IMG/VR virus record: IMGVR_UViG_2541047968_000009
Coordinates: 1 to 38,240 of that record
From: a virus
Taxonomy: Duplodnaviria > Heunggongvirae > Uroviricota > Caudoviricetes
Strand: one strand, 5' to 3'
Length of the DNA: 38,240 nt
Shown: positions 15,001-21,000 of the stretch, piece after piece
How the letters are laid out: every line of letters starts with the position of its first letter
How positions within the stretch are numbered: the stretch's first letter is position 1
Made by a program: the position numbers

Positions 15001-18000
15001 ACAACCGCAAGGAATACCACCTCACCCTCGACACAGCCAAAGAGCTTGCGATGGTTGACGACTGCGTCCAATACTGACTATACTCCGCGCCGAGGCCTCG
15101 AAAACCTCCCAAAAGCGGATTAAACCAACCCCGTCAGTGTTGGATTTTTTATGCCTGTTATTCAGTGATAGCACAGTGTGCGGTCACATCCCCGATCAAT
15201 GTCGGGAGGGCGACGAATACAACACCCGCAAGGGGAATAAGTCCGCGGTATCTTTTGGGCCGTTTCGAGCCTCCCGGCACCACATCTTGTGGTGGCATTT
15301 CTCGAAAAAAGCCAAAGGAGGTCATCATGACCACTCAACTCATCCCTGTGTTTGAAGGTACAATCTCAAATGAACCTACGCTTCTGGTGAACGCGCGTGA
15401 TTTGCATGGATTTTTAGAGGTAGGTAAAGATTTTTCTAACTGGATACGGGCCAGGCTAAACGAGTATGGATTCGTAGAAAATTTAGACTACATTCTATTT
15501 TCGCCAAATTTGGCGAAAACTCCAGGCCGCCGCCGCAAGGATTACCACCTCACCCTCGACACAGCCAAAGAGCTTGCGATGGTTGAACGTAACGAAAAAG
15601 GCCGCCAGATACGCCGCTACTTCATCGAGTGCGAAAAGAAACTTCGCAACATTCAGCCAGTACAAGCAGAACCACAGCCGCAATTCACAGCCGAGGAAAT
15701 CATCCTCCTTTGCTACATGCAGCTCTGGATGGAAAAAGCCCAGGACCTCAGCAAACACCTGTATCCCATCATGAAAGAGCTGAACTCCTCATACACGAAC
15801 AAGCTGTATGACATTGCGTTTGAGACCATCTACATGGTGACGAAGAACAGAGATGCGTTACTGAGGGAAGTAACACGTCTCGACATGTCAAGTTCCGTTA
15901 TCCAGCGGGCCATGCCAATGCTGAAAAGCCTGCGGGCAAGACAATTTGAATTCTGAAACCAAAGGAGCTTCGGCTCCTTTTTTCATGCCTGAACGACAAC
16001 GCCGCTGAAATCGAAGAGTTAATACAATAAAGAGAAGAGCTCAGTACATTAGATAAACATTTTTTATCATTATCTCATTGCCTTTATTCAAAAAAATAGT
16101 TACATAACGTTACTAGGTAAAATGCAAACCCTCGCTATTTTTATCAGATTGTATGCCGGTAACTATAACAAAAATCAGAACTGGAGAAGATGTTTTGTCA
16201 GCAGCCATTCACCGCATTGAATGGTTGTTTGAAACATTCTCTTCTGTATGTTTATCTTTTTCTGGCGGTAAAGATTCCACTGTACTTTTCCATCTTGTAG
16301 CCGAAGTGGCCTACAGGAAGAAACGTCGTTTTTCTGTATTGTTCATTGACTGGGAAGCCCAGTATCAATGCACCATTGATCATATACAGAAGATGCGGAT
16401 GATGTACCAAGATGTAACAGATACCTTTTACTGGGTTGCACTTCCCCTGACGACAGTAAATGGTGTCTCGCAGTTTCAGCCTGAGTGGATATGCTGGGAG
16501 CCCGGTGTAGAGTGGGTTCGACAGCCACCGGAAGATGCTATTACTGATATGGCGTATTTCCCCTTTTACCGCTACGCCATGACTTTTGAAGAATTTGTCC
16601 CAGCTTTTTCTTCCTGGTTCGCAAGTAACCAATGTAGCGTGGCAATACTGACTGGAGTCCGCGCGGATGAATCTCTTAACAGATTTATGGGACTGGTTTC
16701 CCAACGAAAACTGAGATATGCAGATGATAAACCCTGGACCACGGCGTCACCTGAAGGTTTTTACTACACCATGTATCCGCTGTATGACTGGAAAACCAAC
16801 GATATCTGGGTATATAACGCTAAAACCTGTGCAATCTACAATCCTCTGTATGATTTGATGTACCGTGCAGGCATTCCTCTACGTAATATGCGTGTCTGTG
16901 AGCCTTTTGGCCCGGAACAGCGTAAGGGACTATGGCTTTATCATGTTCTGGAGCCAGAAACTTGGGCACGGATGTGTGAACGAGTATCTGGTGCTGCCAG
17001 TGGGGCTCTTTATGCCAATGAAAGCGGGGCCTATTTTGCCCTGCGTAAACGGATGTCAAAACCATCCCATCATACCTGGCGCAGCTATGCGTTCTTCCTG
17101 CTGGACGTAATGCCGGAAAGAACGGCTGAACACTACCGCAACAAGATAGCAGTCTACCTGCGCTGGTATCAGAACCGGGGATTCCCGGATGATATCCCGG
17201 ATGAACAGGAAAATGATCTGGGCTGCCGGGATGTTCCCTCCTGGCGACGTATTTGTAAGACTCTCATAAAGAATGATTTCTGGTGCCGAACGCTCTCCTT
17301 CAGCCCCAACAAACCCCGGCACTATGAACGTTACCTGCAGCGTATGAATGAAAGGAGGAAGGAATGGGGAATTCTGTGACACCAGAGGTGGAGGTGCTGA
17401 GCAAGATGATTCGACAGTACTTCAGTCAGGAACAATCTGAAGAGAAAACCATACAGGCCCTGAACCATCTCCGCTGCGTACTCCATGAGATCAGCCCCTT
17501 TGCTCAAGAACCAGTGGACTGTGTGCTGTGGGTAAAAGCGGATGAAATTGTCGCTAACGATTATAATCCCAATGTCATGGCCCCAAGCGAAAAAAAATTA
17601 CTGAAACAATCTCTGGAAAAAGACGGTTTTACTCAACCAATTGTTGTTTCGGAAGAAACAAGCCATTACCTGGTGGTGGATGGTTTTCATAGGCAGTTAC
17701 TAGGTAGAAGAACAGTTACTGGAAAACGCCTGAAAGGCTGGCTACCAGTAACCTGTATTAATCCAGACCGAAAGGGACAAACCTCACGTATTGCCGCGAC
17801 TATCCGACATAACAGAGCCAGGGGGAAACACCAGATAACCTCAATGTCTGATATTGTCAGAGATCTTTCACGTCTTGGCTGGACTGATGAACGTATCGGA
17901 ACAGAACTGGGGATGGACCAGGATGAAGTTCTGAGGTTAAAGCAGATTAGCGGGCTAACGGAGTTATTTCAGCAGGCAGATTTCAGCCCTGCATGGACTG

Positions 18001-21000
18001 TTACATAAAGTTAGGTTAGGCCTGTGGAGCCGGGGAATCGGAATTAAACATCTTCCCTCCCCGGTAAATACAAATAAGGGCTGAACATCATCCCGACTAC
18101 CTCAGATCACCTAATAATATATCAAGATTATTTTGCGCATTAATGCTATTCGCCATTACTGTTGCTGCTTCTGGCAACTTTCCAAGAGCAATAAATATAT
18201 TCTTAAGGCTGATTGGAATTGATGAACCATGCGGATCGCGCCACTCACCGCAAATTCTGTGAGTTTCATCACAAAGCCTGAACGCATCCCAACCTCCATA
18301 TTGACCAAAAATTATGTCCATTGACTCTATTTCTGCGGGCGATAACTCCCCCAGCTCATCAACAGAAGAAAATGTACGCCACATTTCAACCTTATGATCC
18401 GCTACATCAGATATCCATGATTCCCACGGACTGTACTCGTTTTCACTTCCATCCTTAACCAAAGAATATGTCTGCGATAAAACGGGTCCTTTGTTCATAG
18501 AGAAATAATGATCACCACTAATGGGAAAACCATACAACTCCATTGCTTTGCGGTCAGAGAGATACATCAGCTTAATGAAACGCATAGATCCGCCATGTTT
18601 TTTCAGCAAATACGCTGCCATTTACGCAACTTTTTCGGTGATGCTGCCAACTTACTGATTTAGTGTATGATGGTGTTTTTGAGGTGCTCCAGTGGCTTCT
18701 GTTTCTATCAGCTGTCCCTCCTGTTCAGCTACTGACGGGGTGGTGCGTAACGGCAAAAGCACCGCCGGACATCAGCGCTATCTCTGCTCTCACTGCCGTA
18801 AAACATGGCAACTGCAGTTCACTTACACCGCTTCTCAACCCGGTACGCACCAGAAAATCATTGATATGGCCATGAATGGCGTTGGATGCCGGGCAACAGC
18901 CCGCATTATGGGCGTTGGCCTCAACACGATTTTACGTCACTTAAAAAACTCAGGCCGCAGTCGGTAACCTCGCGCATACAGCCGGGCAGTGACGTCATCG
19001 TCTGCGCGGAAATGGACGAACAGTGGGGCTATGTCGGGGCTAAATCGCGCCAGCGCTGGCTGTTTTACGCGTATGACAGTCTCCGGAAGACGGTTGTTGC
19101 GCACGTATTCGGTGAACGCACTATGGCGACGCTGGGGCGTCTTATGAGCCTGCTGTCACCCTTTGACGTGGTGATATGGATGACGGATGGCTGGCCGCTG
19201 TATGAATCCCGCCTGAAGGGAAAGCTGCACGTAATCAGCAAGCGATATACGCAGCGAATTGAGCGGCATAACCTGAATCTGAGGCAGCACCTGGCACGGC
19301 TGGGACGGAAGTCGCTGTCGTTCTCAAAATCGGTGGAGCTGCATGACAAAGTCATCGGGCATTATCTGAACATAAAACACTATCAATAAGTTGGAGTCAT
19401 TACCAACTTTTTCTTCATTAAACATAAATCGGCTCTCTGTCTCACATGAAATACTCTTTCTGACTATATGTTAATAGCTCCGGTTATTACAGGTTAATGT
19501 GTGTTTATTTCTTAATCAGCCCCGCACTTCCGTACGGGGCCATTTCTGTTAATCCACTCCCACTTTTTTGTTGTACTCGCGGTTAAAGCGATCCACGGCA
19601 ACCTTCATATCCCGCTCTACCGATTTCACCATCGCCGCCTGCTGCGCCAGACTGAGAGAACTGTCGGCATAAATGGCATCGCGCTGTTTGCGCAAATCCT
19701 TCAGTCTCTTCCGGGTATCCTGCATAAGCCCGTTCATCAACAATTTTCCGTTGTTCTCGTCAATGAACGCCGTTCTTTCTGCACCGGTCAGACTCTTCAG
19801 CTCTGCGTGATACTGCGCAACCTCTGTCATCCGGTCGTACATCTTCTGCTGGTCTGCATACGGCATCACCTCACCCGAAATTTTCCCCAGGAAGGGCACC
19901 TGCTGCTCCGGTATATCAATACCGTTCAGCGATTTCACCGCCGCATCTGTGGTTTTGGAAATGAAGCGCCCTGTCCCTCCGGAGATATAGTCAATCCAGA
20001 ATTTCAGCGATTCCGGTGTGATATCCACCGCGCCGGGACGATACTGGCTGCCACCTGAGAACGCATTCAGCCAGGATGCAAACGCCTTGTACGCCTCAGG
20101 CGTTGAACGTCTGCCCAGTTGGCTGTCCGGTTTCGGTGTGCCAAATGGCATGTTCTCCTGGTAAATCTGCGCCCCCATGAAGTTTTCATTCATGGCAAGG
20201 TTCGCAAACGGACGCAGAATGGTCGGCGCTGCATTTTTCAGCAATGCCCCGGACAGTGTTTCCGACGTTTCACTGCCCACAGGACTGAATGCCCCCAGGA
20301 TACCACCGACAACATTACCGGCAGCACGTGAAGCAGTCAGGTCGCCCGCTGCCACACCTTCAGCAGTATGCCCGAGCAGGAAGAAAACGTTGTACCCGTA
20401 AGGCAGAGGAATACTCCAGTACTCTCCGGCCTTGCCCCCGAACACCGATTTCATAATGACGAGGTTACGCTCTTTCACATGAGACGGCACCTTGTCATAC
20501 CAGTTAACCCCGTCATCATCCTCCCCCGCAACACTGCGGTTAAGCGAGCCAAGCAGATAACCCGCTCCCACAGCTGCAAGCGCGATTTTCTGCGGTACAT
20601 TGAGATTCTTCCAGCGAAGGCGCTCCGGTAACGGCCCGTCGCCATTAAGATGTCCGAGCGTTCTCACCAGGTTTGCGGTCCCCTGAATGCTGGCGTTGGC
20701 AAACATATACAGCGAGTTCATCAGCGCTCCCTGCTCACCACGACGGTTAAAGTTCACCGTCATGTTTTTGGCAAGAGATGCCGCCTGCTGGCGTGACAAA
20801 CCGGCATCACGGGCGTGTTTATAGGCAGAAAGACGCAGAGCGTTTTCAACCGCGCCGTTGGCATCCTCGACCAGGTTCAGGAACGAATGCCATGCACCGA
20901 TACTCTGGCCTTTCCATCCTCCCTTCGCCAGCGATACAAGGCGATCCATTTCCTTCTGCTGGCCTTCAAGGTCACCCATGTTAAACCAGCCGGTTTTACC

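Follow-up and report, generated by a model that had tools for sequence, protein, structure and literature searches.

The closest described systems

The genes ibrA and ibrB were named in 2002. Sandt, Hopper and Hill reportedly described in ECOR-9 an 'IbrAB island', which contained overlapping ibrA and ibrB genes, antirepressor homologs, homology to Stx2 phages and a left boundary near min 35.8. The present work concerns a gene pair in a stretch of 38,240 nucleotides from a Caudoviricetes virus (IMG/VR record IMGVR_UViG_2541047968_000009, positions 1 to 38,240; hereafter the window), which in a preliminary description had been noticed to resemble ibrAB. The relation was found to be closer than a resemblance. 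Escherichia phage PhiR5_2 is 99.9% identical to the pair at the nucleotide level and is annotated with IbrA and IbrB ('co-activator of prophage gene expression'), and the product name given to the second gene by the NCBI annotation pipeline PGAP is 'IbrB-like'. As in ECOR-9, the window pair consists of overlapping genes for a protein resembling 3'-phosphoadenosine 5'-phosphosulfate (PAPS) reductase and a ParB-like protein, and it lies beside antirepressor and Stx-phage-like genes. Because every feature reported for the ECOR-9 island is matched, the window locus was regarded as the known ibrAB locus type and not as a look-alike; judged by these features, there is probably no difference between the two. 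What sets the window apart is that the stretch called an 'island' in ECOR-9 can be seen here to be one end of a prophage that looks complete and has an eib-like gene of its own. The ibrAB locus of the window is already described and annotated in public records.

The proteins of the window are 91% (IbrA) and 87% (IbrB) identical to those of the O157:H7 island pair. YbdN and YbdM of Escherichia coli K-12 show the same two-domain architecture, overlapping genes and the same motifs, with full-length protein identities of 57% and 61%, respectively, but their genes are chromosomal, lie beside a LysR regulator, overlap by 28 nucleotides and have no link to eib; the ybdNM operon of K-12 is repressed by YbdO/CitR. 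The earlier remark that the biochemistry of the pair is not established agrees with the literature searched, in which no biochemical study of IbrAB or YbdNM was found and YbdM was termed 'completely uncharacterized' in a 2022 publication.

Among DNA modification systems, Dnd also combines a ParB/Srx-superfamily protein (DndB) with a PAPS-reductase-fold pyrophosphatase of adenosine triphosphate (ATP), DndC, in this case acting on DNA. The DndB family has a 'DGQHR' motif that resembles the DGFHR box of IbrB. Unlike Dnd, the ibrAB pair has no DndA, DndD or DndE partner, an iron-sulfur (Fe-S) cysteine set is not conserved, and IbrA has a DUF3440 domain instead. DpdA/DpdB (7-deazaguanine DNA modification) and ParB-methyltransferase fusions are similar in that a ParB-like ATPase/DNA-binding domain escorts a DNA-modifying enzyme, but the catalytic partner is a transglycosylase or a methyltransferase, not a PP-loop enzyme. 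DndB-DndC, DpdB-DpdA and the ParB-methyltransferase fusions are thus precedents for a ParB-like protein that escorts such an enzyme. VirB, KorB and Noc have in common with IbrB the ParB N-domain followed by a helix-turn-helix and a transcriptional phenotype, and the Noc alignment spans both regions; they differ in having the GERRxRA cytidine triphosphate (CTP) box, while IbrB has no C-terminal dimerisation domain and has an obligate enzyme partner.

What was not found in the literature searched is the family-wide picture reported below, that is, a wrong PAPS-reductase label, a strict two-gene core, cupin and GNAT fusions together with a third small partner, and no conserved catalytic cysteine. 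We tentatively propose, at somewhat short of an even chance, that ibrAB encodes an ATP-dependent enzyme complex acting on DNA, with activation of eib as one read-out.

IbrA and IbrB are encoded as a conserved two-gene unit

The window contains the ibrA-ibrB operon; the 933W/Stx-phage-like prophage whose right end carries it is integrated in ynfG. The gene ibrA (16153-17379, plus strand) encodes a 408-residue PP-loop protein of the ATP-pyrophosphatase fold, with the ATP pyrophosphate-binding motif SFSGGKDS at residues 35-42 (nucleotides 16255-16278, plus strand; SGGKDS at residues 37-42). The gene ibrB (17364-18008, plus strand) encodes a 214-residue protein of the ParB/Srx superfamily, with DGFHR at residues 106-110 (nucleotides 17679-17693, plus strand), the position of the ParB GERR nucleotide-binding box. 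By direct reading, the genes overlap by 16 nucleotides (17364-17379), and AGGAGG (17353-17358) ends 5 nucleotides ahead of the ibrB ATG at 17364, in a translational coupling region on the plus strand (17353-17379) that includes the ibrA stop codon at 17377-17379. The protein lengths, the PP-loop signature, the DGFHR motif, the overlap and the AGGAGG had been reported before and were confirmed. The search of domain models that had been suggested gave Pfam matches of ibrA to PAPS_reduct (1.5e-16) and DUF3440 (5.2e-33), corresponding to a PAPS_reduct core at about residues 14-238 and a helical C-terminal DUF3440 domain at about residues 240-408. In PHROGs, IbrA and IbrB were assigned to phrog_2302 (5.8e-86) and phrog_2159 (4.9e-91), respectively.

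The linkage of the two genes was found to be obligate in bacteria. In GTDB, surveyed with one genome per species, all 79 bacterial loci that encode an IbrA homolog have an IbrB homolog directly downstream on the same strand. Of 80 environmental phage contigs in IMG/VR whose IbrA is 46-54% identical to that of the window, 76 also encode IbrB, and in the other four IbrA is located at the contig start. Even for a distant subfamily with full-length DUF3440 (31-37% identity to IbrA), an IbrB-type protein is encoded no more than three genes away in 53 of 75 phage loci. The gene orders in phages are A-B, A-GNAT-B, B-small-A and B-small-GNAT-A. The neighbourhood survey that had been called for gave co-occurrence of the homologs in all three sets. 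When the A and B homologs of 153 loci are compared with the window proteins, their identities co-vary (r = 0.91), and the overlap from A into B in 104 adjacent pairs is 16 nucleotides in 54 and 28 nucleotides in 25; distant phage pairs overlap by 4 nucleotides. The arrangement is not due to chance, since the two genes stay together in 153 loci and an overlap of 16 or 28 nucleotides is found in 79 of the 104 adjacent pairs. An exception to the pairing was observed in gut-type viral contigs (L175-L186), where a DUF3440/PAPS-reductase-like gene lies alone on its strand among lysis-type genes and an IbrB-like partner was not detected.

The family is large, comprising 1811 clusters at 50% identity with a threshold of E ≤ 1e-3. 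The phage neighbours of the pair have early, replication and recombination functions (NinB, NinG, RusA, RecT, DnaB-like, beta-clamp, SNF2, Prim-Pol, C5-methyltransferase, S24 repressor and integrase). The guanine-plus-cytosine (GC) content of the phage contigs carrying relatives ranges from 0.26 to 0.69, which implies that the hosts are very diverse.

In E. coli, the 2.1-kb ibrAB region is 100% identical in 19 complete genomes, and an allele of ~84% nucleotide identity is present in ~1900 further genomes. Any copy is found in 1930 of 5426 E. coli genomes, so that the pair is present in about one third of the complete genomes. The 84% allele was observed in the O157 island beside a PerC-family gene, on a haemolysin plasmid and in an island on the side of a tRNA-Asn gene, and no third gene is common to these settings. 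Its occurrence in unrelated contexts without a common third gene indicates that ibrAB moves as a self-contained cassette.

IbrA is related to adenylyl-transfer enzymes

IbrA has the SGGxDS-type PP-loop and the Rossmann-like alpha/beta fold of the PP-loop ATP pyrophosphatase/adenine nucleotide alpha-hydrolase superfamily. The motifs SFSxGKDS, GxRxxESxxR and YPxYDWxxxDIW are kept in at least 97% of 148 homologs, the most divergent of which are 46% identical, and also in the 31-37% identical subfamily. DWExQ, MRxCEPFG and NDxWC are further conserved motifs in the 148 homologs. The closest folds are those of flavin adenine dinucleotide (FAD) synthase (flavin mononucleotide, FMN, adenylyltransferase), adenosine 5'-phosphosulfate (APS)/PAPS reductase and CysD, which are adenylyl-transfer enzymes. 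The identity of IbrA to CysD, FMN adenylyltransferase and CysH is 15-22%, and IbrA differs from them by an additional domain of 170 residues, DUF3440, for which neither structural nor sequence relatives were detected. By motifs and fold, IbrA looks like an enzyme of the ATP pyrophosphatase/adenylyltransferase type.

The product name 'PAPS reductase' in PGAP and PHROG follows from the Pfam PAPS_reduct domain, and would make IbrA a true PAPS reductase with a role in auxiliary sulfur metabolism. This explanation is effectively refuted. In the alignment with CysH and CysD of E. coli, the PP-loops of IbrA and YbdN are complete and align with SIGKDS of CysD, whereas CysH has the degenerate sequence SSSFGIQA; at the position of the catalytic cysteine of CysH (ECGLH), IbrA has Lys258 (RKGLW) and YbdN has Gln. 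Because the full ATP PP-loop is kept and the CysH catalytic cysteine is absent, the label is wrong. The scores of IbrA in the CysH equivalog models are also far too low (NF002537, 32.9 versus a cut-off of 154; TIGR02057, 31.2 versus 254.2), IbrA scores far under the cut-off of the CysD equivalog model as well, and an obligate ParB-like partner is not in favour of a PAPS reductase. On motif and model evidence, IbrA is therefore not a PAPS reductase and the product name is an over-annotation.

A set of four cysteines in IbrA (C249, C275, C368 and C378) was considered as a possible Fe-S/persulfide site and rejected. C249 is replaced by Asp in some phage copies and by Ala-Ser in the distant subfamily, and C275 is just 69% conserved. 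No family-wide conserved cysteine was found in the 148 homologs and the distant subfamily, which makes a Dnd- or TtuA-type Fe-S/persulfide mechanism unlikely.

The preliminary description had placed the pair among predicted conflict modules. As an anti-phage defence or exclusion module akin to Dnd, Ssp or BREX type 4, ibrAB would mark self DNA through its PAPS-reductase-like enzyme. IbrA has weak PADLOC matches to BrxP (1.6e-7, in the PP-loop region only) and DndC (4.5e-5), the pair occupies a moron-like place at the prophage end beside a Panacea/SocA-domain gene, and the 84% allele occurs in islands and plasmids. In spite of these observations direct support was absent, as no PADLOC system was matched significantly and IbrB matched no PADLOC model. 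In the DndC equivalog model TIGR03183, IbrA scored 17.8 bits versus a cut-off of 290.4. Its match to BrxP of BREX type 4 is local (28 bits, PP-loop region), and the window contains no BREX genes. In the contexts examined, neither dndA, dndD or dndE nor sspABC, PglZ, BrxC or a restriction component adjoins the pair. The Fe-S-type cysteine set is not conserved, and the family is mostly located in phage early regions and not in defence islands. A defence function thus appears very improbable.

IbrB contains a rewritten ParB/Srx nucleotide pocket

As a single sequence, IbrB gave a Pfam match to ParB_N of 1.6e-3 and 18.9 bits, which is under the cut-off of 26.3. With a profile built from 16 diverse homologs, the PDB search returned ParB 4umk (9.2e-6), and also Noc, Spo0J and SbnI. 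The ParB homology of IbrB is secured by this family profile and by PHROG 2159 despite the sub-threshold Pfam score, in line with what had been described. IbrB also matched the ParB domain of phrog_498 (phage ParB-'DNA methyltransferase' fusions) with 7.9e-9; in NCBIfam it gave one weak sub-threshold match, to nucleoid_noc, and no match to Dnd-type models. In the protein, a helical N-terminal extension (residues 1-45) precedes the ParB N-domain (about 50-155), which is followed by a likely helix-turn-helix (about 160-198); the end is reached ~15 residues past the helix-turn-helix. The extension of ~45 residues is found in enterobacterial IbrB, and the phage copies are without it.

The family signature comprises NDYNPN, DGxTQP, DG(F/Y)HR, TIRHNRARGxH, ELGMxxDEVLRLxQxxGL and FSxAW. 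The residues D, G, H and R of DGFHR are invariant in the 16 diverse homologs and align with 'AGERR' of ParB 4umk and Noc. The arginine-rich signature of the IbrB subfamily, RHNRARG (residues 148-154; nucleotides 17805-17825, plus strand), is invariant over 140 homologs and in low-GC phage relatives, and falls on the ENLQRE box of Noc, while the C-terminal motif falls on the helix-turn-helix in the Noc alignment. As far as the alignments indicate, IbrB has all three elements of the ParB/Srx nucleotide pocket, but in rewritten form, as in other non-partition members of the superfamily. IbrB does not qualify as a partition ParB, as it has DGFHR instead of the GERRxRA CTP box and lacks both a ParA partner and the C-terminal dimerisation domain; no parA was found near ibrB in the window.

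The putative recognition helix (ELGMxxDEVLRLxQxxGL) was found to be near-invariant in phages with GC contents of 0.26-0.69, one low-GC phage copy reading 'HIGMSPDELLRLKQITGLASLF'. Such near-invariance is not expected of an operator-specific regulator, whose helix should vary with its target. The conservation suggests instead that the helix meets an equally constant ligand, for example IbrA, a universal sequence or a generic nucleic-acid feature.

Phage relatives carry accessory enzyme domains

An ectoine-synthase-like cupin (PF06339, 6.7e-43) is encoded between A and B in 10 distant phage loci (L229, L214, L223, L235, L212, L213, L231, L218, L227 and L232). In 6 loci (L215:8296-9237, L219, L220, L222, L230 and L234) the IbrB-like protein carries the cupin as an N-terminal fusion (Ectoine_synth 6.9e-37 plus ParB_N). 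A search with the cupin fusion as query returned at least 8000 matches, and the best 120 of them all have the combination PF06339+PF02195. In 5 metagenomic or phage contexts (L273-L277), the DUF3440 gene lies directly upstream of the cupin fusion with a 4-nucleotide overlap, and a gene for 117-137 residues follows. No mention of an ectoine-synthase-ParB association was found in the literature searched. A GNAT domain is fused to the IbrB-like protein in 1 locus (L190:8296-9183), and in the closer set the ibrA-like and ibrB-like genes are separated by a GNAT gene in 9 loci (L102/L103, L109/L110, L124, L141, L159, L161 and L164).

In addition, a small partner protein of 117-140 residues is encoded in 21 and 20 loci of two sets (~40 phage loci), for example in L154 (130 residues), L217 (140 residues) and L273:6914-7327. 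Its versions are 41% identical to each other and have the motifs W..E....NMW and AWIGHA.CA; no Pfam or PHROG match was obtained for it. The cupin, the GNAT protein and the small partner are absent from the window and from enterobacterial loci. Because fusions of IbrB to small enzyme domains fit poorly with a plain DNA-binding regulator, they point to an enzymatic A-B core to which variable tailoring modules are added. The idea that an enzyme may stand behind the 'regulator' label gains from these fusions and from the conserved catalytic motifs, which fall short of proof.

These partners also bear on another explanation, in which the pair would belong to a small-molecule pathway. IbrA would adenylate a metabolite or nucleotide at a phosphate, sulfate or carboxylate group, and IbrB, acting as an Srx-like enzyme dependent on a nucleoside triphosphate, would tailor the product together with the variable partners (cupin, GNAT or small protein). 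The compound formed in this way would serve as a signal, mimic a cofactor or counteract defence, and would affect host and prophage gene expression indirectly. Srx-type ParB domains catalyse ATP-dependent phosphotransfer. The closest folds of IbrA (FMN adenylyltransferase, CysD and APS/PAPS reductases) are all small-molecule enzymes, and the characterised relatives of the cupin and GNAT partners act on small amino-acid derivatives. Nevertheless, a ParB-like helix-turn-helix region is kept in IbrB, the genes sit in DNA replication/recombination modules, linked transporter or further biosynthetic genes are absent, and the E. coli pair has no cupin, GNAT or small partner. We consider a small-molecule pathway improbable.

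The link to eib

A complete gene for an eib-like trimeric autotransporter, the presumed target class of IbrAB, is located at 37109-38218 on the minus strand. It encodes 369 residues starting with MSKKFTKT; the product contains a YadA anchor (5e-16) and matches EibD 2xzr locally (2.7e-9). The distance to ibrB is 19.1 kb inside the same prophage, which bears out the ~19 kb given before. The window ends 22 nucleotides upstream of the eib start, and those nucleotides (38219-38240) match the conserved eib 5' region of other prophages. In the 5426 complete E. coli genomes a close match to the eib allele of the window was not found (best match, 94.2% over 79%). The other parts of the prophage are 91-99.5% identical to strain EC2, and no part of the element varies more than the eib gene.

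Eib-like sequences were found in only 49 of the 5426 complete E. coli genomes, typically in 2-6 places each. All 19 genomes with the exact ibrAB allele belong to these 49, an association that is confounded because the prophage carries an eib-like gene itself and the strains are possibly clonally related. In IMG/VR, ibrAB and an eib-like gene occur together in 4 prophage contigs.

Divergent eib genes were found to have a common 5' region with the inverted repeat GGAAATTCCGAA-N15-TTCGGAATTTC and, ~25 nucleotides ahead of the eib ATG, the palindrome TTTGTATACAAA (conserved regions in L247-L259, L264 and L001:41586-41936). Both are candidate regulatory sites on the basis of this conservation. As candidate IbrB sites, the two motifs gave no more than chance-level matches in the window, including the surroundings of ibrAB.

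These sites would be possible operators if the pair were a dedicated transcriptional co-activator. IbrB would then be a ParB-type nucleotide-switch DNA-binding protein (VirB/KorB-like) that counters silencing near eib or other prophage promoters, and IbrA would merely supply, turn over or stabilise the nucleotide ligand of IbrB, without chemical modification of nucleic acid. VirB, of the ParB family, is a CTP-dependent anti-silencer. The ParB N-domain, the likely helix-turn-helix and a weak PHROG 'transcriptional regulator' match of IbrB are in agreement with such a role, as is the joint occurrence of allele and eib in the 19 genomes. The part of ibrAB in eib expression is summarised in a citing paper (PMC7649339), according to which more Eib is expressed on the cell surface when ibrB is present; eib activation is the only published phenotype. 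The O157:H7 pair, which lies beside a PerC-family regulator gene, is co-induced with that gene on host-cell contact. Set against this, the pairs are far more widespread in E. coli (1930 genomes) than eib-like genes (49), and most relatives are in phages of unrelated hosts without eib. The near-invariance of the presumed recognition helix across phages, the strong constraint on the catalytic motifs of IbrA, the fusions of IbrB to cupin and GNAT enzyme domains and the chance-level occurrence of the eib palindromes in the window also do not favour a co-activator. It is the main alternative to the proposal made here, and one about which we are doubtful.

Proposed action of the IbrAB pair

In the proposed action of ibrAB as an ATP-dependent enzyme complex on DNA, IbrA and IbrB would be made in a fixed ratio via translational coupling and would work as one complex. 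IbrB would dock on DNA through its ParB/Srx nucleotide-binding N-domain and helix-turn-helix. IbrA would be an active ATP pyrophosphatase/adenylyltransferase, not a PAPS reductase, and may use ATP for the adenylation of an oxygen function, located either on the bound nucleic acid (a base carbonyl or backbone phosphate) or on a group held by IbrB. The outcome would be a DNA modification or a nucleotide-dependent change of the DNA state, by which transcription is altered. Higher expression of prophage eib genes would be one downstream read-out, possibly via relief of silencing of AT-rich prophage DNA, and eib activation would not be the ancestral purpose of the pair. In favour of an active enzyme are the conserved motifs, the full PP-loop and the fold of IbrA; in favour of a partnership, the linkage of the genes, their conserved overlaps and the co-varying identities. 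DNA is suggested as the site of action by the ParB N-domain of IbrB and its alignment through the helix-turn-helix of Noc, by its match to phrog_498, by the replication and recombination neighbours in phages and by the precedents DndB-DndC and DpdB-DpdA. The cupin and GNAT fusions and the near-invariant putative recognition helix speak for an enzymatic and not a purely regulatory role.

Several points weigh against this proposal. Complex formation, DNA as the substrate, the adenylation chemistry and the route to eib activation are steps that we infer. Among the 150 best cluster representatives, the unusually long ones were checked for natural fusions of IbrA with IbrB and none was found, so that the physical association is presumed only; the long IbrA representatives were PAPS_reduct/DUF3440 proteins with unrelated extensions or probable gene-call chimeras. 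The predicted structure of IbrB, obtained with an alignment of close homologs only, has a pLDDT (predicted local distance difference test) of 47.5. No sulfur-transfer, methyl-donor or glycosyl partner that could act after adenylation is encoded beside the E. coli pair, and a family-wide conserved cysteine is absent. The ectoine-synthase and GNAT relatives act on small molecules and fit a metabolite pathway equally well, the association with eib in the 19 genomes is confounded as described above, and the only published ibrAB phenotype is transcriptional.

In a broader form of the proposal, ibrAB would be the minimal two-gene core of a widespread phage system, in which IbrB guides the PP-loop adenylating enzyme IbrA to modify DNA chemically, with lineage-specific tailoring modules (cupin or GNAT fused to IbrB, and a partner of 120-140 residues). 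We put this forward with reserve, as a possibility that we consider less likely than not. If it were true, the 'regulator' phenotype of 2002 and the 'PAPS reductase/sulfur auxiliary gene' labels would both have misread a new DNA-modification pathway. A DNA-modifying activity would constitute new phage DNA chemistry, and would explain how a prophage-borne enzyme pair controls a serum-resistance, immunoglobulin-binding virulence factor.

Independent of the mechanism, 'PAPS reductase' genes are counted as sulfur-metabolism auxiliary genes in phage genome papers, and for the IbrA family the label is wrong. The family-wide picture makes the question of mechanism experimentally tractable. Mutation handles are provided by K40/D41 of IbrA and by H109/R110 and R148-R153 of IbrB; further handles are the eib 5' palindromes as candidate binding sites and the natural cupin and GNAT fusions, which point to an enzymatic pathway.

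Prophage setting and neighbouring genes

The homology of the window to ordinary E. coli chromosomes ends at position 14348, and the chromosome/prophage junction (14348-14349) lies inside ynfG, corresponding to ~1,663,075 bp or 35.8 min in K-12. From the junction, the order is a truncated antirepressor gene, a full antirepressor gene, ibrA, ibrB, a convergent Panacea/SocA-domain gene, the insertion sequence IS1, the gene of a 2787-residue polyvalent protein, 933W-type tail genes, lom and the eib-like gene. The full antirepressor gene (15327-15956, plus strand; AntA/AntB plus P22 AR C-domain, by Pfam and by PGAP annotation of the identical locus) is directly upstream of ibrA, and the truncated copy (14793-15077), in tandem with it, encodes 94 residues with the AntA domain only. 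A hairpin with a T-run was seen by eye at 15961-15983 between ant and ibrA and is not in the list of the terminator scan. No convincing sigma-70 site was found between ant and ibrA in the promoter scan, and the short inverted repeats near ibrA are unremarkable.

The Panacea/SocA antitoxin-domain protein (18097-18621, minus strand; 174 residues, 2.5e-19) is encoded convergently with ibrB, and an obvious adjoining toxin partner is absent. Between this gene and the giant gene lies IS1 (768 bp, 18637-19404), bordered on either side by one copy of the 9-bp target duplication AACTTTTTC (18628-18636 and 19405-19413). Neither PhiR5_2 nor the prophage of strain EC2, which is otherwise nearly identical, contains this IS1. 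The polyvalent protein (19549-27912, minus strand; 2787 residues) contains LPD38, LPD5, LPD1 and MuF_C and is a giant protein typical of 933W/Stx-type short-tailed phages.

At the start of the window, a 740-residue protein with a C-terminal Rv2179c-like 3'-5' exoribonuclease domain (2.1e-67) is encoded at 109-2331 on the plus strand. The gene of a tyrosine integrase (2687-3982, plus strand) adjoins it and abuts rspB. Together, they look like the end of a second, separate integrated element. In EC2, ynfE carries a 6.6-kb integrase-bearing island (L001:8144-14740 versus 10739-10755 of the window); the window is without this island, and its ynfE is therefore intact.

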